Assembly (NCBI GenBank): GCA_043228905.1
Contig: JBHGNT010000011.1
Coordinates: 17,174,001-17,238,000, forward strand
Direction: 5' to 3'
Source: Azolla caroliniana
Lineage: Eukaryota > Plantae > Polypodiophyta
Length of the DNA stretch: 64,000 nucleotides
The notes under the pieces: model-generated
Database searches by the model: none
Told to the model about the DNA's origin: nothing
What the model saw: only the letters and a program-made list of their open reading frames with translations
Translations under genes and position numbers: made by a program
In this document: in pieces, positions 12,804 through 47,106 of the stretch
Position numbering within the stretch: position 1 is the first letter of the stretch
How the letters are laid out: every line of letters starts with the position of its first letter

Positions 12804-13118
12804 CGATGCAACAAAAAGGAAAGTATGGCATAATTCCACCTCAGATCGGAAGTTGTATCTTAAAATAAGTGAAGCCCTTGCCATCGTTTCTTAAAGGCCA
12901 CTTGACGTTGCCATAGAACATCATTTGAACCTTGCAGATCATCATATTGACCACATAGTGTATAGACAAATAACAACCAGAATTCAATAAGCATTATTAA
13001 AAATTGCATCACATCTCGCTTTCCATATTATCCAAAGAGCCAATGATGTAATAGTATGCCAAATAACCAGATTTCAATTTAGTAAACCGTCGAATAGAAG
13101 ATGTCATGATATGGCAAG

Positions 13119-13170
13119 ACTCGAACCCATGACCTTATGCTACATGGGTCGAGCTCTTACTATTAGACTA
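13119..13170 (-). promoter_or_regulatory. tRNA-like Pol III A-box/B-box module in the Tcn1 LTR (copy also in the 3' LTR, ~18532-18583)
   Basis: Minus strand TAGTCTAATRG...AGGTCATGGGTTCGAGTC at tRNA spacing. Confidence 0.65.
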
Positions 13171-13587
13171 TGAATTGTAATTTGTAGGATATTATTTTCA
13201 TTTATGCTTTATCATAGAAAATTGATGTATATTCCAGATCTCTCTGGAACATTCTAGAAGCTTTAGGCTTATTCCTAAAAACACTATAAAAGGAGGCACA
13301 AGGCATTGTTTTGAACCAAATTGGTTCAACACCAGTCTTAAGCCTCTTAGCTGCTTTGTACTTATCTTTCACATAATATATTAGTTGTTGTCATCATCTC
13401 TCTCTCTCTCTCTCACTTCCTCTCTCGGGAGTCTTACGCAGTCCCGTCCCCTTAGTACTAATAGTACTACTCTTCTTTAGTACTAATTCCATCTCTGTTT
13501 TAGTACTATTCCTGACAGTTTGAACCAATTTTTCTCCTCCAGCCTACTTGTCACTCTCCCTCATCCTCCTACCCTTTTCCCTATACT

Positions 13588-14745
13588 ATGGCTACTGTTA
13601 GCGCCCAAGAATACCAATCCGTTTTCTCCGAGCTATAGTGCCTAAAAGAAAAGTTTGTTGCCCTGGAACAAGAAAACCAACGGTTGATAGGGGATCTGCA
13701 ACAAATCGCTCTAGAAAAACAACAAACGCAACAACAACATGGGGAGTTAGCGTTACGGGTACAACAACTCGAAGCAGCGTTGCAACAACAAGGATCAAGT
13801 CCCCAAGGATTTCATAAAGAGCCCAAGATTGGGCTTCTTGTGAAATTTGATGGAACGCGATCGCAATTTCGGGGATTCCTTAATAAGGTACGCTTAGTCA
13901 TCCAGATGCATCCTTCCCGATATCCCACTGATGCATCTCGAGTCGGCCTAATAGGCACGCTACTTACCGGCTCAACCTTGGCATGGTTTGCTCCGCTTCT
14001 AGAAAAACAATCGCCCTTGCTTAATCACTTTGAAGATTTTATTGGTGAGTTTAAAGCCTGCTTTGGAGATACCGACAGCATCAGGACGACGATCAACAAG
14101 ATCCGAAGATTGCGTCAAGGCGATTGTCCAGCCTTTGCCTACGCGGCAAATTTCCGTCTACTCGCCTCAGATATCCCTTGGGATGATCATGCCCTCATGG
14201 AGCAGTTTTGCTATGGCTTGCGCAACGATGTCAAAGACTTGCTTTTAACCTTCCCCGAAGAACCAAAGTCTCTTACAGAGGCAATCAGTCGAGCGGTCTG
14301 ATGCGACAACCGCCTTTTCGAACGGCGTTCGGAACGTCAGTTACAAATACCACACTCTCGGCCGGAACCCACATACGCCTCAGTCACGGCTAAACCATTT
14401 GCACGCGATGTACCTCAAGCCAATATTCCGACACCGATGGAGATCGACACCATGCGTCGACGCGACCCGTTATCGGAAGAAGAAAAGCAACGACGACATG
14501 CCAATCGATTATGTCTTTATTGCGGTGGACCAGGGCATATCGCCATCAATTGTCCCCATAGGCCAAGAAGACAGGTAAATCAAATCGTCGCCTGTACTAA
14601 ACCCGAGTCAATTCTTCCCTTCGGAGTGTCTGATAGTATTAATAGTACTAATAGAGTGTCTGATAGTATTCATAGTACTAATAGCCCAAGTATCTCAAAT
14701 AAATTTGAAATCCTTAGTCAATTAGATGAAGAGTTAAACGATTGA
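13588..14745 (+). pseudogene. Tcn1-like gag (capsid + CCHC), with stops/frameshift
   Basis: KFDGTRSQFRGFL, LRQG..AYAANF, FCYGLRNDVKD, PMEID, CLYCGGPGHIAINC. Confidence 0.9.
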
Positions 14746-14788
14746 GTCCAGCCAAAATAGGAGCCGTTTGGTTGGATAGCAGCCCTAG
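14733..14788 (+). other. Putative -1 ribosomal frameshift signal (gag-pol)
   Basis: G_TTA_AAC in the gag frame, 7-nt spacer, then stem TCCAGCCAAA (14747-14756)/TTTGGTTGGA (14767-14776). The pol ORF is in the -1 frame. Confidence 0.7.
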
Positions 14789-17700
14789 ATCTATACAGCC
14801 CATTAGTGGTTCCATTCCTTCCAAGAAAGTTAGCAATGTGTTCCTAGCCCAAGTCATTGTTAGTACTAAAAGTACTCCCCCAGTACCCGTCCTAGCACTT
14901 TTAGATTCCGGAGCTAATTCCTGTTTCATGGATCGAAATTTTGCCCAAGCTTCTCAGATATCCTTAAGAAAACTTCCTTGTCCCGCATCTGTAGTAGTCA
15001 TTGATGGTCGTCCCATTGCTTCCGGGAATATTGTAGAAGAATTAGAACCCATTCAAGTTGTCCTAGGTAGTTTTGTGTGTGTAATATCATTTAATATAAT
15101 TAAGTGCAATGAATATATATTCTTGAGAATTATTAAAGCTAATACATCATCCTTTAATCTCCTTTTACATTCATTTTTTTCCATAAAAAATATGCTCCAT
15201 TGGTATTAAAATTAACAATGCCAAAGGCAATCTACAAATTGTACATAATAGTTTCCACTCCATAAGTATATAATATCATTTAATATAATTAGTAGTCCAG
15301 AGCATCCCATTGTCCTAGGATTACCTTGGTTTGAATTACATAATCCAGCCATAGATTGGAGAACAAGAGAAGTCTGATATCGACCACCCCAAGAATCAAC
15401 TCACCGAGTTTCGACCATTTCACTCCATCAACTACGCGAAGAAGGACCCAAGGAGGCAATGTTCCTATTTGCAATATCAGTACATCCTTCCAACACTATT
15501 AAGAAGGACTCCTCAGTACAACTTCCAGCAAAATATCATCCTTATGCCAATGTATTTGACAAGGTAAAAGCCGGTACCCTTCCTCATCACCGTCCCTATG
15601 ATTGTCCCATCGATTTACAACCAGAAACCGAGCCACCATGGGGACCAATTTACAACTTGTCACCCACCGAGTTAGAAGTCCTTCGAGCCTACATAGAGGA
15701 GAACTTGGCAAGCGGGTTCATCCGTCATTCGAAATCTCCGGCCGGTGCACCCATCTTCTTTGTCAAGAAGAAAGATGGCTCACTTCGTCTCGTCGTTGAT
15801 TACCGCGGATTGAATAAAGTCACCATCCGGAATAGGTAAGCACTTCCTCTTATATCAAGTCTTTTAGAGCGAGTTAATGGTGCCAAGTTTTTTACTAAAA
15901 TCGACCTACGAGGAGCGTATAACCTTGTGTGGATCCGACCGGGAGATCAATGGAAGACCGCCTTTTGCACGCGGTATGGGCATTTCGAGTATACTGTTAT
16001 GCCGTTCGGCCTAACCAATGCACCCGCAGTCTTCCAACACATGGCAAATGATATATTCAGAGACCTCTTGGATATCTGTTTGATCATCTATTTGGATGAT
16101 CTATTGATTTATTCGAAGACCCAGGAAGAGCACGATTTTCATGTACTATTAGTACTAAAGCGACTCCGCGAGAATGGTCTTTATGCCAAGCTAGAAAAAT
16201 GTAGCTTTGATTGCAAGCAAGTGGAATTTCTAGGCTACGTCATCTCCTCAAAGGGCATCACCATGGATCCAGCTAAAATCCAAACTGTACTAGAGTGGCA
16301 AATTCCACGGTCGGTACGAGATGTACAATGTTTTCCAGGTTTTGCTAACTTCTACCGTAAGTTTATACAGGATTACTCGAAGATTATTTTACCTCTCACA
16401 CAACTTACGAAGAGGGGCCAAGCATTTCTTTGGTCCATCGAAGCAGATATGGCTTTTCGGCATCTTAAGAAAGCCTTTACATCAGCACCGATTCTAGCTC
16501 ATCTGGATACAAGAAAACCATTCATCATGGAGGCCGACGCATCAGATTTCGCCCTTAGTAGCATCCTTTCTCAACAAGGAGATAAAGAAGATTTGCATCC
16601 GGTGGCTTTCCATTCGCGCAAATTCGATGTCGCAGAAATCAACTACGAAATACATGACAAAGAATTATTAGCCATCGTGTATTCATTTGTGCAATGGCGG
16701 CATTTCTTAGAGGGCTCTCCACATCAGGTCATTGTCTTTAGCGATCATAAAAATCTTGCTTATTTTTAGAACGCTCGCGTACTAAATTGACGGCAAGCTC
16801 GGTGGGCGCAATTCCTCACACGTTTCAATTTCAAAATCACATATCGACAGGGGAAGCAGCAAGGAAAAGCAGATGCACTATCACGACGTTCATATCTTGC
16901 ACCTCGTCCTGGTGATGCAACATTTGATAATCAAAAGCAAGTAATCTTGGGACCAACACGATTGCACACGACGCGGATTTTTCACACCCCGATGGATTCA
17001 CGGATTACTGATGACATACGTGCAACCTTGAAAACGGATAGTTTTGCTCAAGACATCCTGGTGCACATTGATACTTCTGAGGCATCCTGTTCTCGGTCTC
17101 AACAACCAGGTATTGACTACCGACAATTCGAATATCATGATGGTTTGTTATTCTTTAAAAAGCGCGTATATGTCCCCGATTGCTCCTGTCGCCTTCAAAT
17201 CGTCCAACATTGTCATGACACCCATACGACGGGACATTTCGGTAGTACTAAGACATTGGAGCTAGTGCAACGATCTTTTTGGTGGCCCCACATGCGCCGT
17301 TTTGTCGACGACTACGTTCAGACTTGTGATGCTTGCTGCCGAGCAAAGATGCCACGACACCATCCATATGGCTTGTTGGAACCCTTACCGATTCCAAGTA
17401 AGCCGTGGCAGTGTATTTGTCTTGATTTTATCACAGATCTGCCCGTCTCGAAGGGGTTCGATGCTATCCTAACTGTCGTCGATCGATATACGAAGATGGC
17501 ACATTTTGTGCCGTGTACTAAAGCCATCACTAGCGAGGAAACCGCCGCCCTTGTTATGCGTGAGGTATTTCCGCATCATGGCCTCCCAGACAGTATCATC
17601 AGTGACCGAGGACCGCAATTTGTCTCCAAATTTTGGCAGCATCTCTTCAAGATGCTCAAGGTCTCCTACAACCTCTCCTCCGGCTACCATCCTCAGACCG

Positions 17701-18503
17701 ATGGGCAGGCGAAACGAACAAACCAAATGCTGGAGCAATATCTCTGATGTTTCCTGAGTTATCAACAGGACGATTGGGACGAGATTCTCCACTTTGCAGA
17801 GTTTGCGTATAATAATGCTATTCACTCCTCGACTTGGGTGTCCCCATTTTTCGCTTATACCGGTTTCCATCCTCGCTGGTCGGTGATCGACACCCCGGAG
17901 CTACCTACCAACCCTCGTGCCGAGGATCATTTGGAGAGGCTACGCAAGATCCAGATGGATCTCTCTACTCACCTTCGTCATGCTCAACACACACAAAAGA
18001 CTTATGCGGATCGTCATCGGATTCCCTCCTCTTTTGCCATCGGAGATCGAGTATGGCTCTTACGTCGTCACATCAAGACTACTCGACCGTGCGACAAGTT
18101 GGAGTATCGACGACTCGGTCCCTTCCGTATTAGGGGTAAGATTAATGATGTCACATTCCGCCTTGATCTTCCTCCGCAGCTTCAGATACATCCGGTTTTC
18201 CATTGTTCTCTTCTTGAACCTTATAAAGCAAACACCATTCCCGATCGTGTGACACCACCGCCGCCCTTGTTGGAGTTGGACGTCGGCCCGGAGTATGAAG
18301 TTGCTGCCATCCTCGATTCCAAACTTGTTCGCAACAACCTTTATTACTTGGTCGATTGGCTCGGTTATAGTCCGAGCGAACGTACTTGGGAACCCGTCGA
18401 GCATGTTGCCAATGCACAGGATCTTCTTGCTGATTTCCACCGAAAGTATCCGGACAAACCTGGTCCGCAATCAGCGCCGACTCGTTCCACTCGTCGTCTT
18501 TAA
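14742..18503 (+). pseudogene. Tcn1-like pol: protease, RT, RNase H, integrase, chromodomain (interrupted by stops and a 189-bp insertion)
   Basis: ALLDSGA, YLDDLLI, EADASDFA, H..GHFG..CDAC, SDRGPQF, GPF, EYEVAAILD..YYLVDWLGY..TWEP. Confidence 0.93.
15082..15291. mobile_element. 168-bp AT-rich insertion flanked by a 21-bp direct repeat
   Basis: TAATATCATTTAATATAATTA at 15082-15102 and 15271-15291. Removal restores protease ISFNIISSPEHPIVLGLPW. Confidence 0.85.
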
Positions 18504-19889
18504 GGGGGAGATAGTGTCATGATATGGCAAGACTCAAACCCATGACCTTATGCTACATGGGTCGAGCTCTTACCATTAGACTATGAATTGTAATTTGTAG
18601 GATATTATTTTCATTTATACTTTATCATAGAAAATTGATGTATATTCCAGATCTCTCTGGAACATTCTAGAAGCTTCAGGCTTATTCCTAAAAACACTAT
18701 AAAAGGAGGCACAAGGCATTGTTTTGAACCAAATTGGTTCAACACCAGTCTTAAGCCTCTTAGTTGCTTTGTACTTATCTTTCACATAATATATTAGTTG
18801 TTGTCATCATCTCTCTCTCTCTCACTTCCTCTCTCGGGAGTCTTACGCAGTCCCGTCCCCTTAGTACTAATAGTACTACTCTTCTTTAGTACTAATTCCA
18901 TCTCTGTTTTAGTACTATTCCTGACAGAAGATGGAAATGAGATGAGATAGAGGTGTCCATAGGAAAAGCGAGAGACATGAGAAGCATGCCTACTTGCATA
19001 CTTCATAATATCTCCATGAAGGACACCCCATAATACAACACCCCTCGAGAAAATAGAACGAGAATAATGTTGTCTCAGCAATAAAAACAACTTAGTACTC
19101 CAAAATTGCTTGGTCTTGGGACATAACCAAAACACACGCAAAATAGATTCCATAGATGCACCACAATGCATTCCACAAGCATATTGCTGATTTTGCCTCA
19201 ACCAATCACCAACAGGAAGAGCATAATGCATCAACAACCAACGAACACAAATAACTTTTTTTAGCAACTACATACTCCACAACCATTTCCAAAATTTGGC
19301 AAGTTGCATTGCGTGCACAATATTTGCAGTCCAATGCTTCATGGCAGTAGGGCATTTATACTTTGATTGCAACAACAAGTTTCTACCTAGCTTAACGGAA
19401 TATTGGAAAAACTCCAAATGTTTACCATTTCCACCAGCACTCGCTTATTTCCATTGATAATCAGTCAGATCCCAATCCAAATTGTAAAGAGACTTTTTTT
19501 GAAAAACCCACAATGAGCAACACAACAAGCATTCTTGAAATGGTGGATCCAAGAACCATTTTTTTCCAGATCTTGCAACTACTCGATTAGCCGAAACATT
19601 GGTGTACATCCACACATCTTATGTAGAAAATACATGCCACAACCTACCATCATCATCTACATTAAAGTATTTAGCATCACCCATAGTGTTAGTTACTTGA
19701 GCTCCTAAAATAACTTTTAAAGGAGAGGAATAACCAAACCAAATCTGATTGCTAGAACCATGAAGCCCTAAATTGTCCAAATGCCACTTGCATATCATTG
19801 CACATAATAGCACCTACTCAAACTAAAAACATTGACAAAGATTGTTATAGTTGATTCATAACATAACATCCTCATGACAGAACATTACC

Positions 19890-20400
19890 TGTCATGAACA
19901 TATACCAAAACTCCAAGACTTGTAATAAAGATTCGAACCCATGACCTCGTCAAATATAATATGTAGCTTCAACCACTAGGATACATCATATTACATTTAT
20001 TGAATTGTAAATTCTTATATTAGATCATGAAGAAATATATCTAATAGTGTGAAACGTTGCCACCGCATAGGCTAACGCATGATTACCAAGTGTCATGCTT
20101 GCATGAATGCCAAGTGGCATGCTTGCATGAATGCCAAGTGGCATGCTTGCATGAATGACAAATGGCAAGCATGCGTCTATGAGGTGGCGAGCATGCATGT
20201 ATCCAAAGCATGCTATATAAACATATAGCGAACTATTGATGAACCATTCCGGTTCAACGCCAGTCTTCGGCGTACTCTTATAACCCTTGTTCTCATTGCT
20301 AATACATTTTCAATATCTTATTTCTCTCTCATTCCTCTCTTATTTTCTATTTCTCATTCTTTTCTTCATGTTAAACTTGTCTTTGGCTACGGCCCTGACA
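19890..20400 (+). mobile_element. Solo LTR of a second Tcn1-like family; TSD TTACC
   Basis: TGTCATGA..CCTGACA, with TTACC at 19885-19889 and 20401-20405. Shares GAACCCATGACC and GGTTCAACGCCAGTC with the 13102 LTR. Confidence 0.9.
20086..20175. repeat. 24-bp tandem repeat (CCAAGTGGCATGCTTGCATGAATG, about 3.5 copies) in U3
   Basis: Direct reading. Confidence 0.9.
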
Positions 20401-20833: not shown

Positions 20834-22806
20834 TGTCACGGACACACCAAGCACGGACTAAGACGGAGCAAGGATGATGAGGCTACAACGGAGCGATGAC
20901 GGAATGACGCAAGAGCATAAAGATAGAGATGAAGATTAAGGAGACAATATTGGGCGAAACGAGAATACTAGATTGATATGTCCATGACTGGCGTTGTTCA
21001 CCTTGAATTCCTTCAAGGTGAACTCAACTATTTATACTAAGTGGCATGCATACCTGTTGCACGCATGTGATACAATAGAGCATGTAGGCAATAGGTACGC
21101 ATGCATGTGCCAAGTGTAAATAATACAAGGAAGAAATTATGCACATGATGCTAGCTAAAACCTACAATGAGGAAGTATACACATGATTATATGTTAGATG
21201 TGTGGTTAACACATAACACTCGATTATAAGATGGTCATGTCAAGAGTTCGAATCTTGACATTATCCCCCCTCCAACGATGCCTTCCCAAATTGTTTATCG
21301 GCTTAAGGGGATATTGTTGATGAAAATCTTAGATCACCTCCAAAGTATTTTGTAAATCCTAGACAAGGAGTAACCCTTCCACAAGACGAGGTATTTAACA
21401 CCAACGGGCATGAGCGACCATGTGTGGTCCTTGCCTAGGACTGGAAGACAAATATCAACGGGTGTGAGTGACTATGTGCGGTCCTCACGGGGAGAATGAA
21501 CACCAAGGGGCATGAGTAATCACATGGGGTCCTTACCGGGAACTAGAATGGTCCTCACTGAGAGTTGGAACACAAACACCAACAGGCGTGAGCAACCATG
21601 TTGTCCTCACCGAGAAATGGAACACGAATGAGTGAGTGACCATGTGGCCCTCAGCGGGAACAGGAACACGAACGGGAGTAATCGACCATGTGTGGTCCTC
21701 ACCGGGAACTAGAACACGAACAACAATGGGCATGAGCGACCATGTCGGTCCTCACCAGGATCTGGAACACGAACAATAGTTGGAGTGAGCGACCATGTGC
21801 GGTTCTCACCGGAGACTGGAACACGAACGGGAGTGAGAGACCATGCGGCCCTCACCGGAACAGGAACACGAACGGGCGTGAGCGACCATGCGGCCCTCAT
21901 CGGAAACTCGAACACGAACGGGTGTGAGCGACCATGAGGCCCTCACCGGGAACTCGAACACCAACATGCGTGAACGACCATGCGGCCCTCACTAGGAACT
22001 AGAACACGAACACCAACAGGAGTGAGCGGCCTTGTGCAGACCTCACCGGGAATTGGAACACGAACACCAACAGGAGTGAGTGGCTTTGTGCGGCCCTCAC
22101 CGGGAACTCGAACACGAACACCAACGGTAGTGAGCAGCCTTGTGCGGCCCTCATCGGGAACTAGAACACGAACACGAACACGAAAGAAACTAAAAAATAG
22201 AGACAAAGATGAGGAGAATCTAAAAGCCAATGAAAATGATGAGAAGAAACTAGGAGATAGAAATGGCGAGGAAGATAGGAAATGACGCGATGTTGATGAT
22301 GGTACAGTGACGATGGTAACTCTAGAAGCAAGGGCGATGACGAAGACGGGTGATGCTTCTAGTTGGAAGGTGAACAAACTGTCACGGACACACCAAGCGC
22401 GGACTAAGACGGAGCAAGGATGATGAGGCTACAATGGAGCGATGACGGAATGACGCAAGAGCATAAAGATAGAGATGAAGATTAAGGAGACAATATTGGG
22501 CGAAACGAGAATACTAGATTGATATGTCCATGACTGGCGTTGTTCACCTTGAATTCCTTCAAGGTGAACTCAACTATTTATACTAAGTGGCATGCATACC
22601 TGTTGCACGCATGTGATACAATAGAGCATGTAGGCAATAGGTACGCATGCATGTGCCAAGTGTAAATAATACAAGGAAGAAATTATGCACATGATGCTAG
22701 CTAAAACCTACAATGAGGAAGTATACACATGATTATATGTTAGATGTGTGGTTAACACATAACACTCGATTATAAGATGGTCATGTCAAGAGTTCGAATC
22801 TTGACA
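20834..22806 (-). mobile_element. Non-autonomous Tcn1-derived element (TRIM-like, 1973 bp); TSD GCACC
   Basis: 427-bp LTRs at 20834-21260 and 22380-22806 (2 differences seen). PPT GGAGGGGGGATAA on the minus strand. Chromodomain remnant KYLVLWKGY and DFHQQYPLKP at ~21300-21395. No gag or pol. Confidence 0.93.
21395..22183. repeat. Degenerate ~45-55-bp tandem array (GAACACGAACGGGCGTGAGCGACCATGCGGCCCTCACCGGGAACT-like)
   Basis: About 15 recognisable units inside the non-autonomous element. Confidence 0.9.
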
Positions 22807-24646
22807 GCACCTGCAAAATACATGATCTAGCAAACAACGTAGTAGAAGCAATATACCAAATAGTTGCTAGAAGAACTTGGTTAGCTATAATGAGGAGCAA
22901 CTAACGTATCTGTATTAACATGAAGTCCCACTTGGTAGGCTAAGTAGCGAGTAGTGGTTCCATCAAGAACCCATTTGAATTCCTACGAAGGCATCCAAGC
23001 AGGCAACGAATTTTGTGATACTCAAAAACCAAGAGATTTATGCCAATTTATCTTTACTTTAGAGGCCAAACAGAATTCCTCCACTACTACTTGCAATTTT
23101 CTTAAATGATCATCATTACTTGGACATAAATTGCAGTATCATCTACGAATTTTGAATCCAACAATTGTTGTTGCATTGCGGGCAAAGGCAAACCTTTAAG
23201 AGAAACTTGAGAAGAATTTAAATTGCCTCCCATTAGGTCTTATTATTTCATGTAAATGTTGAGCAAAGATGTTGCCATGAAAAGCTCGAGCAATGTGAAT
23301 TGATGGTTCATATTGGAACCCTTAATTGCCAATTGAGTGATCTCTTTATCATCATAGACTTGTGAAAATGTGGCTTGATCAATTAAAGAGTACTAGTATT
23401 TGGAATGTTTCTATCACTTATTTGTAGATCCAAAATATAGAAGAGATAGGTATAATATGGCATAAACACGTGCATGCCACACATATATGTGTATGTGTAC
23501 ATATGCATATTCTACATCTGTGTATGTGTGTGTGTGTGTGTGTATCTGCATGTGTTTAAGTGTATCTTTCAGAATATATTCTCATTGTCAAATTTATTCA
23601 TGAGCATTTGATTTGTAAACCCAACACTATGATAGTCTTATAAAGTTATACGTATCAAGAGTGGAGCCTATTCACTACTACTTGACATATGGGAAATGGC
23701 AATAGAGAAGATTTCGTTTGATCTTTCCCTCATTAAAAATCTCTTACTTTGTTTAAAGGATACAATCGAGCCATTGAAGGTGTTATATAGCACCTTTTGA
23801 TCTTAGGAATATTTTGGTATGTGTGTTCATGTATGTATCAAGACAAATAGACTATATACGAGGTATGTGTACATATTTTTTCCATTTTTCTTCTTGTGCT
23901 TGACTAGGAATGGGAGTGATTGTCATTCAATATCATAGGTTTTGGCCATGTATAAATTTTGGCTTTGTGAACAAAGATAAAATATTTGCACCTCTCACAT
24001 CGAAACCATTCAACCCCCACTCCTTTTCAAGAGACTTTGATGGAAAAGTAACAAGTCTACACACATTGCCATTTCCTTTATAGAACATGCTACACCTTGT
24101 AACATTTTTTGTACGACGCTAAACCTCTTTTATTTATGTTTTCTTTTCGATGATTGGGTACACATCCCAATATTGCAATCAATTGTCTTGTGAGCCAAAT
24201 TTGGTCTTAGAAGATGCTAATACATATTTCTTTCTTTCTCAATGGAATATATATTGGACCTCTCAAGTGATGATAGGAAGCATGTGATCATTGAAGAAAG
24301 GCTAAATGAGCTATTGCGCATGAAATGACAATATGCAAAAAACTCAAAACAATAATACCACATTGCAAACAACCCTGAATGTTGGATCCATTTTGAGGTT
24401 ACAACGTGAAACCATACCATACAACATCTTACCACCCCCACGAGCCTTAGCTAACACAAAATCATTTCACTTCTTTGGACTCCCTCGCCCTTTCACTTCT
24501 TTGAACTCGTTGTTAGGTGTTGAGTTAGTGTCATTGTATTATAAAGCAAGTATGATGATATGCAAGGTATATAATTGTTGGGATTTCGGTCCCTCCGGAT
24601 GGGATGTCCGGAGATGAATGACGGCAAGCCCGGTTGCGGTTACGGT

Positions 24647-24850
24647 GCCGGATGATGAAGACCCCGGCTACGGAGCCGGATGATGAAGACCCCGGTTACG
24701 GTGCCGGATGATGAAGACCTCGGCTACGGAGCCGGATGATGAAGACCCCGGCTACGGTGCCGGATGATGAAGACCCCGGCTACGGAGCCGGATGATGAAT
24801 ACCCCGGCTACGGAGCCGGATGCTGAAGACCCCGGTTACGGAGCCGGATG
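24647..24850. repeat. 28-bp tandem repeat x7+ in the Copia-2 LTR U3 (also ~29523-29726)
   Basis: GCCGGATGATGAAGACCCCGGCTACGGW units at 24647, 24675, 24703, 24731, 24759, 24787, 24815 and a partial unit at 24843. Confidence 0.95.
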
Positions 24851-32070: not shown

Positions 32071-32189
32071 TTAAAATTTCCCCTCTTATTTCTATACACC
32101 ATTTCCTAGTAATCGTGTGCACATGTTGCACACCACCGACTTGCCCTTTCCACCCTGGTTTCCGCCTATGGACGAAAATCTTCACGACA
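32070..32189 (-). mobile_element. Truncated 5' end of a family-B-like LTR
   Basis: Minus strand TGTCGTGAAGATTTTCGTCCA, as at 36718 and 40292, flanked by ACGT. Confidence 0.75.
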
Positions 32190-36717: not shown

Positions 36718-37442
36718 TGTCGTGAAGATTTTCGTCCACGAGCGAAAACCCGAGCAACGAGAGCCAAAGAGCGATGTGCAACGTTGCACACGTACATAAT
36801 GTATTTGTAATAATAATAGGGGAAAAGGGTATGGTGCTAGAAATGCCCCATAAGATCCCTAAGGTATAAAGGCGATGTGGTCTTGTGCGCACATCCACGC
36901 GGGAGAGAGAGAGAGGTACTATGCGGTACATAGGTACCTAGTTGTTTGTGAGGAGGTGGGAGTTAAGGGGCCATCAATTTCACCCTCCCCAAATCAAGGC
37001 AAATATCCCCTTTGAATGAAAGGGGATATTTTAGTCTCGTTTTTGTAAACGGTCTTCCCTCCTTGTGCTATAAAAGGAGAGGGAAGGTACCATTGTGAGG
37101 GTTGCCTATTTTGAGTGTGCGAGGTATACCAAATAGGTCGAGCGTTAGGGTTAGGGTTAGGGTTTTTTTATCTTCATCTTCATCTTCGTCGGTTAGGGTT
37201 TCGAGTAGTCGTTTGGTGCGGCCTACACGGCCACCATTTTTGTAATCGTTCACTTCGTTTTAATATATCTTGTTGATAATCTTGTCTCCATCTTCCTCTT
37301 GTTCGATCTAATCTCTTGTTCATTCTTCTTCTTCTTGAGCAAAGCTTCCATTCCATGTCCGATTCCTTCTCCTCTACTCCTTAGTCCAAGACCCCCGTGG
37401 TCCCGCCCTTCGCCACGCACGCGCGTAGCAACGCGACATATT

Positions 37443-37460
37443 TGGTGAACCCGACGTGAA
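37443..37460 (+). promoter_or_regulatory. Primer-binding site complementary to the tRNA-Trp 3' end
   Basis: Reverse complement TTCACGTCGGGTTCACCA matches the plant cytosolic tRNA-Trp 3' end as recalled. Confidence 0.8.
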
Positions 37461-37482
37461 GAGGCAGCAAGGGAGGAAGGAG

Positions 37483-38543
37483 ATGGAAGACAGAGACATC
37501 GCAGAAGTAATTACGGGAATGGCAAGGGATTTCGCAAGAAGGAGAGAAAGACGGGAAGAGGCGTACAAGTACGATCGACGCGAGTTCAATCTATGGGTGT
37601 TGTCGGCAAAGGCTCCTCGAAGCGCAATGAAGGCATTCCGGGAGTTCGATCTCCGGTTTTCCCAACTTTCGGTCCGGGATCAAGAATCGGTGGGGGCGGA
37701 CAAGGTCCCACTATTCTTGAAGTCGGTCAACGAAAGGGGGAGAATGGCCATTTTTCCCTACCTCGAAGACGATGAAGGGGCGTACGGCCTCACCGAAGAT
37801 TGGAACGAGGTGGAATGGGCGTGGCGTGCATACAATGCGATGAGAGGCGGTCGGCCACAACGCGGCCCGCGAGCGACGGAGAAGAGAGAGCGGCGACCGA
37901 CTACGCACTACCGCCGGAAGAGAGCTCAACGCAAATCGGTTCGGAGGAGCTCGACATCGAAGCCTTGGTGCGAGAAGCGTACGAGATCGTAGAGGCACAA
38001 ATCGAAGCCGAAGAAGGGCTTATTGCGGAGTCGGGGCCGAGCGGATTGGAGGATGAGGAGGCCAAAAGGGAATGGTACATCGGTACCACGGGAGAGGGTG
38101 CGGAGCGAGCCACCCTCTCGACATGTGGAGAAAGATCGACCGAGGACGAGGTCGGGGACGGTGAGGCGGCGATCGCCGGTTCGAGTGGACATGAGGGAGT
38201 TCGGGCAAGGAGGCCCAAAACATCGAGTGAGGAGGAGACAAGCGGCGGTGCCGCGACCTTACACAAACCGGTCCTAGAGACTCCGGCAACCGGCCCGAGA
38301 GCCGGTGTGAGACCTAGAGAGACGGACGGTGGCGGCGGCAAGGCAGGCAACCGAAATGACGAAGAGGAGGTTTGTAGCGGACGGAGGCGAGATCCCTCGA
38401 CACCGGGGCCGGAGACTTCGGCGGTTGCGCCTGAGCGCAGACATAAGACCGGAGAAATGGGCGGTGGCCGTGAGGATGAGAGGCCTGGAGTGGGCACATG
38501 CGAAAAGACCGAAGGAGAGGTCCGGAGCGGCATCGAGGAGTGA
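37483..38543 (+). pseudogene. B gag-like ORF (frameshifted)
   Basis: AMKAFREFD..GADKVPLFLKS..GLTEDWNEV, then an acidic low-complexity tail. Confidence 0.65.
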
Positions 38544-41500
38544 GTCGGGAACCGACCCGACCGAAAGATGAGCCGGTCGGTAATCCGACCCGACCGGGAG
38601 GCAGAGCGGAAGAAGAGTGAAGCGGGGTCCGGTCAACCGGGCCCAAACCGAAGAAGAACCGGCAAGGCCGGATTTGCGCGGACAAACATGTACCGGCCGG
38701 TTACGATTACGGAAGGAAGCCGACCAAACCGGAACTCGATCGGCCGAGACCGATCCGGGCGAAGGCTAAGTCGGCATGATTGGAGATCGGGGAGGACGGG
38801 TCACAACACGCGACGAGAGCCGGTGAGCGTATTGAGGAGGCCTAGTGGGCACGGTGATCACGGCTTGCTAGAAGACCGAGAGCGAGAGGGACCCTCCACA
38901 CCCATTCTAGAGACTTCGGCGGTTGCGGATCAACGTGAGACCGGATAGACAGCGGGTGGCGGCGAGGAGTCGGAGGCCGAAGTGGACAAAGTTATCGGAG
39001 CGGGTATCCAGTATGAGATGATGGACGAGTGGGTCCAAGATGGCGAGCCCGGGTCGGAACAGGCTACGGTGACAAAGGAAGAAGTGGCCAACGCGGAGGT
39101 CGGGTCTACGGCGGATGAAGGGCGTAACACGAAGCATGCATTACGGTCGGTGAAGGGCCCAAGAACGAGCATGCATCCGAGAGAGCGTCAACGAGTGACC
39201 GGAAACGGTGGACCGATTGAGCCTTTGAGAGGCGAGGACTCGGTGGTGGACTGAGAGTGGGAGGAGCCCTCCACACCTACCCGTGAGGCATCGGTGGTCG
39301 CGGATCGAAAGGAGAACGAAGAAACAGTGGGTAGCGGCGAGGAGTTGGAGACCGACGCGGAGGTCGGGTCTACGGCAGAAGCGCGACATGAGACGCATGC
39401 AATACGGCCGGTGGAGGGCCAAGACACAAGCATGCATACGGCGGATGGGCGACAACGATTGACCGACGATGACGGTCGGGTCAAGCCTTCGAGAGGCAAG
39501 CGCGGGACGAAGGACAGCGCGGCGAAACACCAAGACCGACGACATGGGCCGAGCGCGATCGGCATGAGCGGAGAGTCGTGTCTTGAGAACCGAAGAAGGT
39601 GCGCGGAGAGCGACGGGCTACGCGCCGGGAAGAGGAAACGCGGCTTCCCGGAGGGCATGCAAGGCCAAGCGGCCCAAGAGGGCGCAAGTCGAGGCGAAGC
39701 AGTAACGAGAGCCTCGAGGGACACCGACACGGAGGTCAGGATGACAGTACGCTCTACCGCGAGAGAGCACGGAGAACAACGGGGAAAGCCTACGGAAGGC
39801 CAGCGCGGAGCGGAGAGAATCGGCACGCCGAGGTGTGCGGCACGCAAAGGGCGGAATCCGGCATGCGACCGGGAGCGCATCCGGGGGATATACGAGGCGG
39901 ACAAAGGAAGAGCAACCGGGTCGGCGACGGCGTTCGGGAGGACCGAACGGGGAGGAAAGCACGGGCATCGGATACGGTGGGTCGGGTGTAGTCGGTGGTT
40001 CAAGGACCCACGGTGGACGTGGCGGATCAGGTGGAGGCAACGACTCGGCAAACATCGTCGAGGGTGGCGGATCGGATGGCGCCGACGGTTCGAGACCATT
40101 CGGTGAGGATGGTGGACCGGAAGGCAGTTGTGGTTCGTGTGGACAGGGTGGTCTTGCTCGAAGTGGAGGACAAAACCGGGCGGGCCCACGAGGGCGCTAA
40201 GGACTCGGCCGGTCGTCATGGCCGAAAATCTCGTGTTCTCTCCCCTATGTTTTGGCACATACCGGTGGATGTGCGGTTAGGTGGGGGCGGATGTCGTGAA
40301 GATTTTCGTCCACGAGCGGAAACCCGAGCAATGAGAGCCAAAGAGCGATGTTGCACACGTACATAATGTATTTGTAATAATAATAGGGGAAAAGGGTATG
40401 GTGCATTAGGGTTAGGGTTAGGGTTTCTTTATCTTGATCTTGATCTTCGTCGGTTAGGGTTTCGAGTAGTCGTTTGGTGCGGCCTACGCGGCCACCATTT
40501 TTGTAATCGTTCACTTCGTTTTAATATATCTTGTTGATAATCTTGTCTCCATCTTCCTCTTGTTCGATCTAATCTCTTGTTCATTCTTCTTCTTCTTGAG
40601 CAAAGCTTCCATTCCATGTCCGATTCCTTCTCCTCTACTCCTTAGTCCAAGACCCCCGTGGTCCCGCCCTTCGCCACGCACGCGCGTAGCAACGCGACGG
40701 CGTGCCATCACAGCGGGAAGAGGCCGAACGGCAAAGAGAGTCGACAAGGGTCGGCATTGGGGCTAGCATTGCGGAGGCGTGCGCAGCTCTCGAGGCGATG
40801 CTCGAGGAAGAGGAAAGATCGAGGCCGCAAGCCGAGACCGAGGAAACAGACTTGCCCCACGCGATGGCGGAAAACCGGTACCACGGTACCACGGGAGAGG
40901 GTGAGGAGCAAGACGCCCTCTCGACTTGTAGAGAATTGCCGACGGAGGACAAGGTCGGGAGCGGAGAAGAGCCATCCACGCGGATTCCGGAGACTCCAGT
41001 GGTCGAGCCCGTGTGCCGACATGAGACCGGAGAGAAGGAAGGCGCCGACGAGGAGTCCTAGCAAGATGCCAGTGAAGAGGGATGGGAAACAGCCTGCGAG
41101 GAGGCCAAGGACGAAGGCGGCACGGAAAGATCGGCATTCCGATTCGAACGGGGCGTGATCCGGACGTGGATGACTCGACCGAAACCGGCCTAAGGCGCGA
41201 AAGACCAACGACGGGCTATCGAGCCCGATTGGTAGGGCTTGGTTCGGTACAATAGTGCCGACGCGGAAGAGGGTGCGAAACAAATCGCCCTCTTTTACAT
41301 AAGGACACAAGCCGGCCAGGCGAAGGCCGCAAATCGGGAAACCGGTGATCGAGGTTGCGGAGAGAGACCGATAGGTTCCGGACACCGCTGCTCGAAACTC
41401 CGGACATTGGAGAATCAAGTGCAAGCGGCACTAGATCGATCGAAGTCTAGATACTTCTCACTGAACGTGCTTGGGGAGCGGTACCCCGAACGAACGTCCG

Positions 41501-44340
41501 CAAATCATTAGGAGACGGAAACACCACGTCTTATCCGGAGACTCATGCAGCCGGCAACGAGCGCCAACGTGAGACCTGGAGTGAAGGGAGATGGAGGCGG
41601 GTACGCGAGAAGGAGAGCGACGATGAGTTCGGGAGAAGTACAGGGGGGTGAAGAGAAGAACGAAGACCGGTCCTACGAAGATCTTCACACCGATCCGGTT
41701 GTCGGCCCGAGTGCCGGCGTGAGTCCTATAGGAGAGGTCGGTGGCAACAGGAGGACGGGACCCGGCAATCCAGAGAATGAGGAACGGACTCAGACGAGAA
41801 TCGGGCGGAGCGGACTCTCGGATAACCATTCCGGGAGGGAGGAAGAGAGCAGGCCTACGAGAGGCCGAGGACACGATACGTTAGTACCACGGGAGAGGGT
41901 GTGGAGCGAGCCACCCTCTCGGCTTGCGAAAGAAGGAAGACCTAGGATAAGGGTCAGAGATACGACGAGCCGGAGGAGAATCCTTCACACCGGATCCGGA
42001 GACTCCGACAGTTGGCCCGAGAGCCGGCGTGAGACAATCGGTGGCGGCGAGGGGTTGAAGGCAAAGAACTGCGGGTGGGCAAACCGAGGTCCCACGAAGA
42101 TCCTCACACCAACCCAGTGGTCGGCCCGAGAGACGGCGTGAGTCCTATAGGAAAGGACGGTGGTGGCAGGCGAACATGTTCGGAGTACGGAAAACGGAGA
42201 AGGAAGGTATCAGGCCGGCGAAGCGGCTATGAACCGAATCGGACCGACCGGCAAGGTCACGGGCATAAGGAAGTCCGGTCCTACGGGATCCCCACACTGA
42301 ACCAGAGACTCCGGCAGTTCGGCCAACGTGGCAACATGAGATCAAGAGAGAAAGTTAGTGACGGCGGGAAACGGGACCCGGCAACATGAAGGCGAGCCCT
42401 GGCTACTCGGAAGACACGAGGAGAGTCACGAAGGACTACGGCAAAACACACTTGAATTTCGGCAAGCAGAGAAACGAAGTCCGGTCCTATGGGACCCTCA
42501 CAACGATCCGGAGACTCCGGCGGCCAGCTAACGGGAGTCGACGTGAGACCTAGGGAGAAGGATGGTAGCGGTAGGGAATGGGACCAGGCGACACGAGATA
42601 ACGGATCAGGAGTCGGTAAGAGGGGTCGGATGAAGTGCCAGTAGGGGCAAACACGGGGAGGTGTGTCGGGCCGGAAACGCACACCTGGGATGGAACAAGA
42701 GTCTCGCAAGTGGCCATTGCGGGCCGGATCGAAGCGTGAATACGGGACAATCTTCGGCACGGGCGGTGCCGAACAAAGGAAGCGGAAGACGGCACAAGGG
42801 AGGTGCCGGGAACGAAGTGACAGGTGCATAGTGGACTGCACAAGGTCGGAGTCAGGGAATGACAAGGGAGTCCGGAGGAGGATCCTCCACACTCGCTTCG
42901 TAGATCTCGGCAGCTCAATCAGATTAGCGAAGATTGACACGGCAAGCCCGGGATGACAAGCTGGTGGGGGCGAGGGGACGACGACAAGCGGAAGACTCAG
43001 GACCTGTTGCAGCAACGCGAAATGGGAAGGGCCAAGCAGGCTACTATAGGGTGTAAGGGGCCGACAATGCGTGCAAAGAACCGGAGTGCGGCACAGGCAG
43101 TGCCAAACAACGGACGAGGGTATGCGGCACACGGAGGTGCCGAAGCGGAAAGGCGAGCGCGAAGATGGGTTCCGCGGTTCAGAGATAGCGCGTAGAAGGC
43201 CAGAGAAGGATCCTACACACCATTCCAGAGACCATGGCGGTTCGAGCCGACATGGCGACATAAGACCATGGAGAAGGAAGGTGGCGGTGAGAGGATGAAG
43301 GCAACGCGAAACAACATGGGACGGCAATCAGGACAAAACCAATGGTCGACGAAGGCCGAGCGAGCCACTACGGGCGTTCCTCAAGCGGAGGACATCGGGC
43401 ACATGGTGGAGAGCGGGGCGTGCATACGGCCGAAGAAGGGCCAGCGGAAGTACACGTACTACGAAGATCGCGGCGAAGGACCCATCGACGGGTCGAACGA
43501 GCCTACGGGGAGGTAAGCGCGAAGGAAGAACTGAAGCCGACGATTCAAACTAGCAATGAGCCGGGATGCGAATTACGATTGTCCGGTTTCTCATCGGCCG
43601 AAATCTCTCACCCTTCACCGGATTTGGCACGTACCGGTGGACGTGCGGTTTGGTGGGGACGGATGTCGTGAAGAATTTCGGCCGAAGGCGGAAACCGGGA
43701 AATATTGGCTACATCGGCGGGGTGCAGCATGTGCGCTCACCCTTGTACATTTAGTGTGAATAACGAGGGCGCCTTTATGGCAACGACGAGTAGTCAAGTC
43801 GGAACAGAGAATCCCATGTAAGTCGGGATTTATCCCACATTGTAACGCATCTCCCTCCTTGTTCTATAAAAGGATGGGAGCGCCTCTTGTGAAGGGGTTG
43901 CCCGTTTTTGCATTCGTAGGGTATACCGTTGGATTAAGAGACACCATCTCTTTCTCTAACTCTTGTTTTAGGGTTTCGTTTCTTCTTCTTTCCTCTGCTT
44001 ATTCCTCTTCGTCATTCTGAGTATCGAGCCTTGGCATCTCGTGTTCCTATTTTCTACCCGTTCTCTATGCAAGACCCCACTCGGCACGACAAGCCCGAGA
44101 GCTCCCCCCTGGACCGGCGGCTTGGCAGTAGACGACTGTTGTAACCTGAGCTACTTAGGTCAGGCTCGATACCAGTATTGTATCTTAGTCTTGTTATATA
44201 TGCATGGAGGGTTCTGCGCACCGATGTTTGTGTGGGTGTTTTGGTGTTCTCTTACCTCTGTTTCTGTACATAAGGGCATGAGTAGGGTCGTCGTGTGTGT
44301 GTGTGTGTGAGTCGGTGTCCAGCGCGCGCGCTCTCTCTTC

Positions 44341-44371
<31 letters not shown>

Positions 44372-44540
44372 GTTCGGTTGCTTCCGGAACGCGTCCAGAA
44401 TCGTCTTCTCAGCTTCCCTTCTTCCCTCGTCCAAGACCCCCGTGGTCCCTCCCTTCTACACGCACGCGCGTAATAATGCGACAACACGCGAAACTTCGTG
44501 ACATCTTTGGTGAACCCAACGTGAAGGGCGGCAAGGGAGC

Positions 44541-45333
44541 ATGGAGTCAGAAGATGATGACCTCGCGAAGATGGTGGCCGAAGTCGTGTTGGAGTCTGCA
44601 CGAGTGGTGATGAGGCGAGAAGCAGCGCAACAAGCGGTTGAGCGAGTGGTCGAAAGAGTCGGCCGTTTCAACGGGGACAAGGTCGCATTCCACTTGGAAG
44701 CCTACAACGCCGAAATGGAAGTGCGTGGCGCAGATGAGGCATTGAGGTTGGAGTTCTTCCGTCAGGTCCTAGCTGTCCGGATACATGCGGAAGTAAAGGA
44801 GCTCCGTGAGGCTTGTAGTTCATGGGATGCCTTCGAAGAGGCGTTCCTGAAGGCATATGGAGGGCAGCCGAAAGGCAGGGGAAGGCGTGACCTCGACCAA
44901 TGGATATTGTCAGCGCAAACCCACCGGGGCGCAATGAAGGCGTTCCGAGAGTACGAACGGCGGCTTGCTCGGCTCCCGGAGCGGGAACAAGGTTTGGTAG
45001 GGGCGGACAAAGTCCTGTTGTTCGTTAAGTCGATCGACCAAGCGGAACGGGAGGCCATCGGGATTAAGCTTGAAGATGAGGACGGAGCGAATGGCCTCAC
45101 CGAGGACTGGTCGAAGGTTGGTAGGGTGTGCCAACGGCTAGATAACGAGCGAGCCGAGAAGGCTAAGAGGAAGGCATGCGACGGCGTGCCATCACAACGG
45201 GAAGAAGCCGAACGGCAAAGCGAGTCGACAAGGGTATGCATTGGGGCCAGGATTGTGGAGGCGTACGCAGCTCTCGAGGCGATGCTCGAGGAAGAGGAAA
45301 GATCGAGGCCGCAAGCCAAGACCAAGGAGACGG
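44541..45333 (+). CDS. A1 gag-like protein (interrupted by solo LTR C)
   Basis: ATG follows the PBS, and the frame is open to the insertion: FNGDKVAFHLEAYN, SWDAFEEAFLKAY. Confidence 0.7.
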
Positions 45334-45686
45334 TGTCGTGGCGTGGCTCGCCTAGAAGCGTAGCGTTGCGCACACAAAGGATAACGTGAAAGTGAGGAAG
45401 GAATCACTGGGATTATGGACGGAAGAGACGAAAGAGTAGAGATAGAGTGAATAGAGATCAATAAGTTATGACAAAATAGGATTTTTAAGGAATATAAGAT
45501 AAGACAAGATAAGATATAAAATAATATATGAGAAAGTGTATGAACTTTATAATCATTTTCATGAAAGAGTTACAAAATGATTGTGCACATCGTTGAACCT
45601 CCGAACTTTGTCTTGCAAGGTAATCGCTCTTCTCTTTCTTGATCGTAGACCATTACAATCTTCACTTCAATATTTTGATGAAGATA

Positions 45687-45740
45687 AGGCTCGAACCGCC
45701 TCCCTCTTGTTGAGAGTTGACCACCACGACCGCCAAGCTA
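45687..45740 (-). promoter_or_regulatory. tRNA-like A/B-box module (LTR C, #3)
   Basis: Minus strand TAGCTTGGCGGT...GGTTCGAGCC at tRNA spacing. Confidence 0.65.
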
Positions 45741-46070
45741 GAGCTCCACGTTTATGTTAAACTTCTTCCCTTCTTTCTCTATTTTTATGGTATCTCTTAT
45801 GAAGTACATAATTTGATTGATATCTCATACATATCCCCCCTTTTGATCTTCTCTTTCACCCTTTAAATAGGTGCCCCCATGCATATGATGCATTGGAGGG
45901 TACAAGTCATGCATGTAGTGCATGAAATGCATGTGATGCATGATCGCCATTTGGCGTTCATGCATTACATGTGATGCACGATAAACATCTCGCTCATTTG
46001 AGCTTTTATGTATGAAACAATATATGCAATAACAATAAACATGAAAATATAATCTTAAAGAGAAAGGGCC

Positions 46071-46125
46071 TAGCCTAATGGTAGGTGTGTTGACTTTGGT
46101 GTATGAGATTGTTGGTTCGAGTCTC
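46071..46125 (+). promoter_or_regulatory. tRNA-like A/B-box module (LTR C, #1)
   Basis: TAGCCTAATGGTAGG...GGTTCGAGTC at tRNA spacing. Confidence 0.7.
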
Positions 46126-46228
46126 AAAATACTACAACATACAACTTTATTTTTATATCATGAAGCAAATCCTTTATGTAATATAAAGTATATATAAAGT
46201 ATGCTTTATTTTTTATATATTACTAGTA

Positions 46229-46281
46229 TAGAGTAAATGGTAAGATTTCAGTCATAGGGTGGGGTTATTGGTTCAAGTCCT
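46229..46281 (+). promoter_or_regulatory. tRNA-like A/B-box module (LTR C, #2)
   Basis: TAGAGTAAATGGTAAG...GGTTCAAGTCC. Confidence 0.55.
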
Positions 46282-47106
46282 CTCTTGTTCGTGTAATATA
46301 ATATATTTATCTATATATATATATTAGTTTTCTTTACATATATATCTAATATTATCATATGTGTTGTTAATATTATCTTTATATATAAAACATTATCAAA
46401 TGTTATTTTAGTTACGTATTTATCTTATTGTAGACTTTTAATGTGAAGCTTTCGTACTTCACGACAACGGACTTGCCCCACGTAATGGCGGAAGACCGGT
46501 ACCACGGTACCACGGGAGAGGGTGTGGAACATAACTCCCTCTCGACTCGCGGAGAATTGCCGACCGAGGACAAGATCGGGAGCGAAAAACAGCCCTCCAC
46601 GCGGATCCCGGAGAGTCCGGTGGTCGAGCTCGTGTGCCGACATGAGACCGGAGAGAAGGAAGGCGTTGACGAGGAGTCCTGGCATGATGCTAGTGTTGAT
46701 GGATGGGAAACGGCCTGCGAGGAGGCCAAGGACGGAGGCAGCACGGAAAGATTGGCATTCCGATTCGAATGGAGCGTGATCCTGATGTGGATGACTCGAC
46801 CGAAACAGGCCCAAGGCACGAAAGACCAGGGACGGGTTATAGAGCCCGATAAGTAGGGCTCGGTTCGGTACAATAGTGCCGGCGTGGAAGAGGGTGCAAA
46901 ACAAATCGCCCTCTTTTACATGAGGACACAAGCTAGCCAGGAGAAGGCCGCAGATCGGGAAGCTAGCGATCGAGGTTGCGGAGAGAGACTGGCATGTTTC
47001 GAACACCGTTGCCCGAGACTCCGGACATTGGAGAATCAAGTGCATGCGGCACGTGATCGATCGAAGTCTAGATGCTTCTCATCGAACGTGCTTGGGGAGC
47101 GGTACC

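Follow-up and report, generated by a model that had tools for sequence, protein, structure and literature searches.

Modules of tRNA-type RNA polymerase III (Pol III) promoter boxes, an A-box followed by a B-box, are, as judged from sequence, a real, selected and host-lineage-restricted feature common to chromovirus and non-chromovirus long terminal repeats (LTRs). We studied them in a 64,000-nt stretch of the Azolla caroliniana genome (assembly GCA_043228905.1, contig JBHGNT010000011.1, positions 17,174,001 to 17,238,000, forward strand; hereafter the window). The window consists of plant retrotransposons nested in one another: a single chromovirus, three copia elements that are full-length or nearly so, a number of TGTCGTGAAG-type LTRs and remnants of long interspersed nuclear elements. 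Tcn1-type and Phygy-type elements indicate a non-seed plant as host (PMC6317226), and the pair by itself would suggest a moss. The boxes are carried by two Tcn1-type chromovirus LTR families, one non-autonomous Tcn1-type element and one Phygy-type solo LTR (LTR C), and thereby span chromovirus (Tcn1-type) and non-chromovirus (Phygy-type) lineages. We propose, with a probability somewhat under one half (about 0.45), that the A/B module is kept by selection and works as DNA, as a TFIIIC/TFIIIB site that would keep the RNA polymerase II (Pol II) promoter open.

A/B-box modules in the window

The window was scanned for the B-box pattern R-GTTCRA-N-Y-C and for an A-box with at most one mismatch 40-60 nt upstream, using the familiar consensus patterns of the two boxes rather than tool-derived ones, against a background of 100 Markov-simulated windows. 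B-box-like 10-mers numbered 15 (4.8 ± 2.3 expected) and A+B pairs numbered six (0.5 ± 0.84 expected; simulation maximum 4). Five of these pairs are modules named in an initial annotation of the window, whose motifs were all found where it had placed them, in the Tcn1, solo and 'TRIM' (terminal-repeat retrotransposon in miniature) LTRs and in LTR C. The sixth pair, at 53046 on the minus strand with a spacing of 60, probably arises by chance. The modules, with spacing counted from T8 to G53, are as follows.

13118..13170, minus strand: module of the Tcn1 5' LTR, pointing outward; A-box 13160-13170 with G18 lost, AGGTC and B-box 13118-13135, spacing 44 nt
18531..18583, minus strand: module of the Tcn1 3' LTR; A-box intact, B-box C56 changed to T at a CpG
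19930..19983, minus strand: module of the solo LTR, antisense to it; no mismatches, spacing 45
21195..21254, plus strand: module of the 'TRIM' 3' LTR; spacing 51, perfect B-box, A-box with two mismatches
22741..22800, plus strand: module of the 'TRIM' 5' LTR, counterpart of the preceding one
46229..46279, plus strand: module a of LTR C, in U3, antisense to the LTR; spacing 42
46071..46123, plus strand: module b of LTR C, in U3, antisense to the LTR; no mismatches, spacing 44
45688..45740, minus strand: module c of LTR C, sense to the LTR; downstream of the putative TATA box and pointing toward the U5 end, 350 nt away
45862-45869, minus strand: putative TATA box of LTR C

Several details of the initial annotation had to be adjusted. 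The Tcn1 LTR pair does hold the boxes reported for it, but the element has no fully intact module: the 5' copy has lost G18 and the 3' copy C56, and two of the four substitutions between the LTRs fall within the boxes. For the 'TRIM' LTR, the longer spacing and the position of the B-box within an 8-bp inverted repeat, which lies at the LTR tip, are as described, but the A-box has two mismatches and the hairpin lies one base off the T-arm register. What had been counted as three copies of LTR C is a single solo LTR holding three modules, and the GGTCATG noted before the T-arm is a conserved feature of the Tcn1-type LTRs that the modules of LTR C do not share. Since LTR C has two antisense modules in U3 and one sense module beyond its putative TATA box, the modules on both sides point away from the promoter.

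A module model built from the Tcn1 clade only was also searched against the window. It found module b of LTR C (E=0.001), the B-box part of the 'TRIM' module (E=0.014), which is not in the training set, and, weakly, module a (E=0.24); the 5' Tcn1 module at 13118..13170 belongs to the training set. The model gave no match to module c or to the window's other Phygy-type or copia LTRs. A few low-depth joints skip 46017-46148, and some copies of LTR C may lack module b. In the window Tcn1 family (13116-13160; 5067-5110 in locus L001), the spacer has turned into an inverted copy of the B-box region, which yields a strong hairpin (z about -3.4 to -3.5) and a degenerate B-box on the opposite strand; this inversion is partial in L017 and absent from other families.

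The elements and parts on which the argument draws are the following.

13102..18926, plus strand: Tcn1-type chromovirus, 5.8 kb, with gag, protease, reverse transcriptase, RNase H, integrase and chromodomain; target-site duplication (TSD) GAAGA
13102-13517 and 18515-18926, plus strand: LTRs of this chromovirus
13285-13291, plus strand: putative Pol II TATA box of the Tcn1 LTR (LTR position 184), of presumed function
13318-13329, plus strand: self-primer complement in the Tcn1 LTR (LTR positions 217-228)
13520..13531, plus strand: 12-nt self-priming site following the 5' LTR; it complements LTR positions 217-228 and is no tRNA primer-binding site (PBS)
19890..20400, plus strand: solo LTR of the second Tcn1 family, 80% identical to the LTR of chromovirus locus L007; TSD TTACC
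20834..22806, minus strand: non-autonomous self-priming Tcn1-type element ('TRIM'), 1,973 bp with 427-bp LTRs; TSD GCACC, TATA box present
45334..46466, minus strand: LTR C, Phygy-type non-chromovirus solo LTR starting with TGTCGTGAAG; 4-bp TSD ACGG, loose end at 45333
45938..45964, minus strand: 27-bp U3 segment of LTR C upstream of its putative TATA box, 96% identical (E 2e-7) to the U3 of the Tcn1 LTRs L007 and L009, in the same orientation

The chromovirus has four in-frame stops within pol. Its chromodomain matches PF00385 and, in an alignment inspected by eye, retains the aromatic residues Y/W/W; it is thus a group I chromodomain with an aromatic cage. The 'TRIM' LTR resembles that of the autonomous, chromodomain-bearing locus L069 (74% over 170 nt). 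The label Phygy-type is given to LTR C, a solo LTR, on its start, TSD and PBS. In contigs of run X1, the end of LTR C is followed by the same PBS as in the window's other TGTCGTGAAG LTRs, a candidate match to tRNA-Trp. The TSD ACGG fits the 4-bp NCGN form listed as the Phygy signature in a supplement row of PMC6317226. Self-primer sites of 11-12 nt occur in both the Tcn1 and the 'TRIM' element, in line with the self-priming, in place of a tRNA PBS, described for Tcn1 chromoviruses (PMC6317226).

Conservation and host range of the modules

When ten modules were aligned, they dropped exactly into tRNA numbering, with T8, A14, T20, A22, A44, G46, T47, G53, T54, T55 and A58 invariant and G18, G19 and C61 at 0.9. 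By the usual consensus T8, A14, G18, G19, G53, T54, T55, A58 and C61 are promoter positions of the A- and B-box, whose promoter role is described in PMC13578239. Over the 36 pairs of nine family representatives, identity was 0.63 in the A-box, 0.62 at positions 44-52 and 0.82 in the B-box, against 0.37 in the spacer, 0.37 in the upstream flank, 0.36 in the downstream flank and 0.37 at four-fold integrase sites; this comparison of boxes with spacer bore out the earlier impression of conserved boxes around a diverged spacer. The 18-mer at 44-61 is genuine tRNA sequence, since 92 of its 121 exact matches (in viral contigs) lie inside tRNA genes called by ARAGORN, of many isotypes.

Relatives were collected by an integrase-chromodomain alignment search, which covered 8 of the 64 parts of the collection and from which the best 79 of 544 confirmed loci were taken; the LTR start could be scored (at least 90 nt) in 62 and not in the remaining 17. 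In one assembly series, a group drawn from contig-name prefixes after the relatives' results had been seen, 12 of the 13 LTR starts that could be scored have an antisense module with no more than two mismatches, nine of them with no more than one, and the thirteenth locus, L069, has a perfect B-box and a weak A-box. In the other assemblies the count was 1 of 49 at two mismatches and 0 of 49 at one. Sense-strand modules at two mismatches occurred in 2 of 13 series loci and 0 of 49 others, and the shuffled U3 background was 0.13% at one mismatch. The 13 series loci do not amount to 13 independent cases: L004 and L005 hardly differ, five belong near the window family and L077 is partial, so that about 7-9 families remain, at 43-76% pairwise protein identity. 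Within the series, G53 lies 25-58 nt from the LTR end and the spacing is 44-45 in 11 of 12 modules, so that the antisense placement at the U3 end first noted in the window proves fixed in position and orientation. Searched against all 79 loci, the module model gave E<1e-6 only within the series (13 hits, 8 of them training rows). The weak match in L018 (two mismatches, A58 missing, inside a tandem repeat) was dismissed as chance. No integrase relatives were found in the viral sequence collection. The window Tcn1 LTR and LTR C are both multi-copy in four sequencing runs (four organism labels, three studies), and many contigs of four sequencing runs cover the module bins. No RNA run was among the runs listed as containing them, which has no bearing on expression. 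The description of the modules as lineage-spanning therefore stands for the elements, chromovirus and non-chromovirus alike, but not for their hosts, which form one group, and the window's other Phygy-type and copia LTRs lack modules.

In quick trees built from the fetched relatives only, from the first of which four short rows were dropped, 11 module-bearing rows and two unscored rows formed one clade (support 96-97), and L069 clustered with six module-less elements (support 96-97). Monophyly of all module-bearers, a group named after the tree had been viewed, was weakly rejected by the approximately unbiased test (p-AU 0.035). Because L069 falls among module-less elements, outside the main module-bearing clade, the module, on this sequence evidence, tracks the host group and not strictly the element tree. 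It was either lost in relatives or moved by U3 exchange, and the U3 segment common to LTR C and the Tcn1 LTRs would favour exchange over loss. CATG-rich repeats with a CCAAATGGCG motif also lie upstream of the TATA box at 20077-20174 and 45878-45990. This region is common to Tcn1 LTRs (the solo LTR, L007, L009 and, in part, the 'TRIM' family) and to LTR C, and is a candidate shared enhancer or trace of U3 exchange.

Copies differ in how well they keep the boxes. The GTTCRA core is intact in all six high-coverage contigs (L007 without C61) versus 4 of 10 single or low-coverage copies (one-sided Fisher about 0.03, calculated by hand), which we read as selection acting on replicating copies, with the B-box probably decaying after insertion in many of them. 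Among 40 of 91 variant rows of the window Tcn1 family, none fell in 13102-13139 (LTR tip, B-box and AGGTC), and the spacer sites 13140 and 13143 varied; this was given little weight because it covers 40 of the 91 rows and because the alignment of contigs favours similar ones. For LTR C, 40 of 175 variant rows were covered.

Such free decay in single copies would also be expected if the module were a neutral relic of a single old insertion of a tRNA or of a short interspersed nuclear element (SINE) into an ancestral LTR, inherited and spread by U3 recombination. The single clade of 11 module-bearing rows, the tRNA-type SINE-like sequences that occur in the host group (L004) and a persisting remnant of D-stem pairing agree with such an origin. 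However, the boxes, the 44-45 nt spacing and a mutable CpG persist while four-fold sites and the adjacent U3 are saturated, no TSD or tail remains, and the module also occurs outside the main clade (L069) and in a Phygy LTR. The relic reading is already strained, and we consider it improbable. A single-copy SINE insertion was rejected, since the modules have no tail or TSD of their own and are present across families; they are family features, as had been proposed.

A possible TFIIIC/TFIIIB site at the U3 edge

We propose that the antisense A/B module at the outer border of U3 would be bound by host TFIIIC. With the module directed out of the element, TFIIIB would then be placed on its inner side, loading on the AT-rich tract between the module and the Pol II TATA box. 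The 50 nt upstream of the module are 80-90% AT in 10 of 10 Tcn1-clade modules, and the distance from A-box to TATA box ranges from about 115 nt (window family) to 230 nt (solo LTR). TFIIIB needs such an AT-rich upstream tract, and TFIIIC and TFIIIB use letters and spacing of this kind on plant tRNA genes (PMC13578239). In the 5' LTR, the interval between module and TATA box would be the junction of host chromatin and element promoter, where the bound factors would likely prevent silent chromatin in the flanks from closing the Pol II promoter. In MAGGY, chromodomains of this type are targeted to H3K9-methylated chromatin, or heterochromatin (PMC3350952). This role in cis is favoured by the conserved letters, the fixed spacing, the AT tract, the place at the promoter border and the heterochromatin-targeting type of chromodomain. 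Selection would act on replicating copies, many inserted copies later losing the B-box, and the module would spread between element lineages by U3 exchange.

Several observations weigh against this proposal. Close chromovirus relatives from other assemblies replicate without the module, and Phygy elements have no chromodomain, so heterochromatin targeting neither requires nor explains it. The box identities given above (0.63 and 0.82) come from an alignment anchored on the boxes, which inflates them, though the fixed spacing, position and strand are free of that bias. G10 is a T in six of ten modules, and conservation at positions 44-51 exceeds the requirements of a minimal B-box. Of the six single copies with a broken core, four show C56-to-T at the B-box CpG; the site is therefore probably often methylated and does not shield itself in every copy. 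Finally, the excerpted text of PMC9540200 gives no plant example of a TFIIIC barrier.

The transcript, rather than the DNA, could be what counts. ARAGORN found no tRNA genes in the window; in Rfam, neither the window nor two short stretches of 200-750 bp matched a tRNA at E<=10, and the window gave no match to 5S rRNA. Cloverleaf cells pair in 57% of cases in the modules versus 55% in shuffles, and RNAalifold predicts no pair in their consensus structure. Real tRNAs with the same 18-mer read CCAT at 62-65 in 77 of 92 cases; the modules do not, in a comparison from which L003 and L039 were excluded as mis-registered through short contigs. A tRNA-gene identity was accordingly rejected, as no cloverleaf of acceptor, D, anticodon and T stems was detected by ARAGORN, Rfam or the pairing tests, in agreement with the initial annotation. 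A conserved RNA structure was likewise rejected, with pairing at shuffle level and a hairpin that is not shared, and so was a conserved terminator, because the first T4 run after the B-box lies from 1 to 1,027 nt away across representatives. A conserved CAA motif upstream of the modules was rejected by eye.

These results bear on the view that the module functions as an outward Pol III promoter and that its transcript, or transcription itself, tunes silencing or gives small RNAs, as the foamy-virus cassettes discussed below do. Transcription would run into flanking host DNA from the 5' LTR and, in antisense, into the integrase end from the 3' LTR. Binding to the B-box alone would not call for all that is retained, namely both boxes, the exact tRNA spacing and the AT-rich tract upstream; six of nine family representatives have, in 3' LTR context, a T4 run no more than 41 nt from the B-box, and the window's own family has a strong hairpin (z -3.5). 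Yet the first T4 run is 450-1030 nt off in the other three representatives and in the window's 3' LTR, other representatives have hairpins of z 0.06 to -1.9 in five of eight cases, and the spacer that would be transcribed is at background identity. A long antisense RNA would, moreover, be expected to harm the element. We regard an outward promoter as unlikely, and the suggestion that the modules are a source of small RNAs found no structural or terminator support.

The module could instead act on the genomic RNA, with a packaged host tRNA annealing to U3 through its D-loop and positions 44-61 and aiding circularisation or strand transfer, like the Ty3 bipartite PBS. It has the place and orientation of the 3' PBS of Ty3, where U3 pairs with the T and D arms (PMC5371799); the conserved 18-nt stretch is genuine tRNA sequence, and the three changes of L009 at 50-52 would all be G-U compatible. 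Against this, the module-bearing Tcn1 elements self-prime (PMC6317226), and therefore no tRNA needs anchoring. Wobble pairing would not accommodate other transitions in 44-61, the variation at D-arm positions 9-12 (0.5-0.7) is that of a degenerate A-box and not of a match to one tRNA, and the sense module of LTR C, beside its two antisense ones, would be unable to pair with a tRNA on genomic RNA. Annealing of this kind seems to us rather improbable.

As for integration, TFIIIC/TFIIIB near the cDNA end or on existing LTRs might tether the intasome, making the modules landing pads in repeat-rich DNA, as with Ty3 and Ty1. The B-box lies only 15-58 nt from the U3 tip, and the yeast Ty1 integrase binds Pol III (PMC12786077). 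Among the four module-bearing window insertions, however, no target site contains a further module or a tRNA gene, the distance from the tip is not constant, and two unrelated integrases would need the same contact. We accordingly give an integration aid very little weight.

Beyond a TFIIIC/TFIIIB site as such, it is possible, though we hold it with clear doubt, that autonomous LTR elements carry their own TFIIIC barrier, which would shield the Pol II promoter from heterochromatin, be passed between chromovirus and non-chromovirus LTRs by U3 exchange, and bracket the promoter in LTR C. Retrotransposons would then possess an anti-silencing device based on a host factor, and nature would offer a case on which the existence of TFIIIC barriers in plants could be tested. 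If the job of the modules is TFIIIC binding, thousands of LTRs would act as extra TFIIIC sites shaping the chromatin of the host genome, and two questions would become approachable: how heterochromatin-seeking chromoviruses stay transcribed, and whether plants have barriers of the tRNA-gene type.

Known systems and neighbouring elements

Pol III boxes already known from LTRs transcribe tiny non-autonomous elements (Cassandra, Helenus, Ajax) or make viral microRNAs (miRNAs). The closest precedent is Helenus/TRIMp3 (Kojima 2024, PMC10886601), in which both LTRs contain sequence that stems from a tRNA, is conserved mainly around boxes A and B and forms no functional tRNA; its members include a plant one, Helenus-1_SMo of Selaginella. 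The likeness, tRNA-like sequence with conserved A and B boxes in LTRs, holds here, and the claim that tRNA-type boxes in LTRs were undescribed is superseded and needs narrowing. Helenus elements are, however, non-coding TRIMs of 311-1263 bp (screen limit 1,000 bp), primed by tRNA and, in the few consensus sequences inspected, with sense boxes followed by a T run. Their autonomous partners are argued to use Pol II and to share no LTR with them (PMC10886601). Here, by contrast, the boxes are antisense in all Tcn1-type LTRs and sit at the U3 tip of full-length Pol II-TATA chromoviruses and of a Phygy-type LTR; the elements are a 5.8-kb gag-pol-chromodomain one and a non-autonomous one of 1,973 bp, and both self-prime. 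Given their self-priming, their retained Pol II TATA box, their antisense boxes and their size, we do not assign the Tcn1 elements to Helenus/TRIMp3. According to the same source, 'not a few' LTRs in Repbase look like part of a tRNA; it leaves the non-TRIM ones unanalysed, so such entries may overlap with the present finding.

The Cassandra and Ajax TRIMs have also captured a conserved Pol III internal promoter in their LTRs (PMC10886601, PMC12786077), but theirs is of the 5S type (A, IE, C) rather than the tRNA type, and the Cassandra promoter makes the element's own RNA, unlike the antisense modules. Foamy-virus miRNA cassettes (PMC3993851) are A/B-box units in the LTR of an autonomous Pol II-driven retroelement, and mutating their boxes lowers expression; they have hairpins, terminators and defined miRNAs, none of which is conserved here. 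The Ty3 bipartite PBS resembles the modules in that U3 is complementary to the T and D arms of a tRNA. It matches a specific primer tRNA, whereas here the Tcn1 elements self-prime and the D-arm match is degenerate. The modules may be likened, too, to the tRNA-Lys3-like sequence in U3/R of HIV-1. For tRNA-gene and TFIIIC barriers of yeast and animals (PMC9540200, PMC13578239), the likeness would be a B-box with TFIIIC at the border of a promoter and silent chromatin; those barriers are host chromosomal elements, and the present ones would be retrotransposon-borne and in a plant. In contrast to the known elements in which Pol III boxes serve transcription, the boxes here stand backward in full-length Pol II-driven elements and have outlasted neutral saturation, and therefore presumably do some other job for the element.

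In its excerpted text, a 2025 review (PMC12786077) treats Cassandra as the Pol III exception among plant LTR elements; the corresponding parts of a 2026 preprint (10.64898/2026.03.01.708851) mention only Cassandra and Helenus/Ajax, and those of an account of Tcn1 (PMC2864245) name TATA and CAAT boxes only. tRNA-type boxes in LTRs are thus known from Helenus, and our literature search, with most subscription papers and Repbase entries outside it, turned up no report of A/B boxes standing antisense at the U3 end of autonomous gypsy LTRs.

Further observations concern the relatives and the neighbours of the modules. The LTR of L015 opens with a 41-nt inverted repeat ahead of the module (1072-1112, z -2.9). 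In the module-less Tcn1 clade, L014, L018 and L033 have 27-bp U3 tandem repeats with GTTCGCAC on the minus strand, one letter off a B-box, which we take as chance. On the minus strand of L004, two A/B-box elements (G53 at 6343 and 1019) lie outside the Tcn1 LTR and have similar tails ending in the same nine letters; they resemble a tRNA-type SINE family of the host group and do not match the LTR-module model. The interior of the 'TRIM' element (21397-22183) is an array of 46/54-bp tandem units with no similarity to the fetched loci.

The Phygy-type LTRs form a nest at 34440-46466 and 53900-57415, with at least four types starting with TGTCGTGAAG and modules only in LTR C. It includes head-to-tail LTRs at 34440/35227 and two LTR ends joined ahead of one PBS near 44480-44510, and one of its LTR types holds short TTAGGG repeats, telomere- or telo-box-like, at 37145-37163 and 40406-40424. 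Among the copia elements, the LTRs at 24637-24855 and 29513-29731 contain 7.8 copies of a 28-bp U3 repeat, compared with only about two longer U3 repeat units in a sister copy at 47107/51822. The element with the 28-bp repeats has an intact open reading frame (25293-29441) and LTRs that are 99.9% identical.

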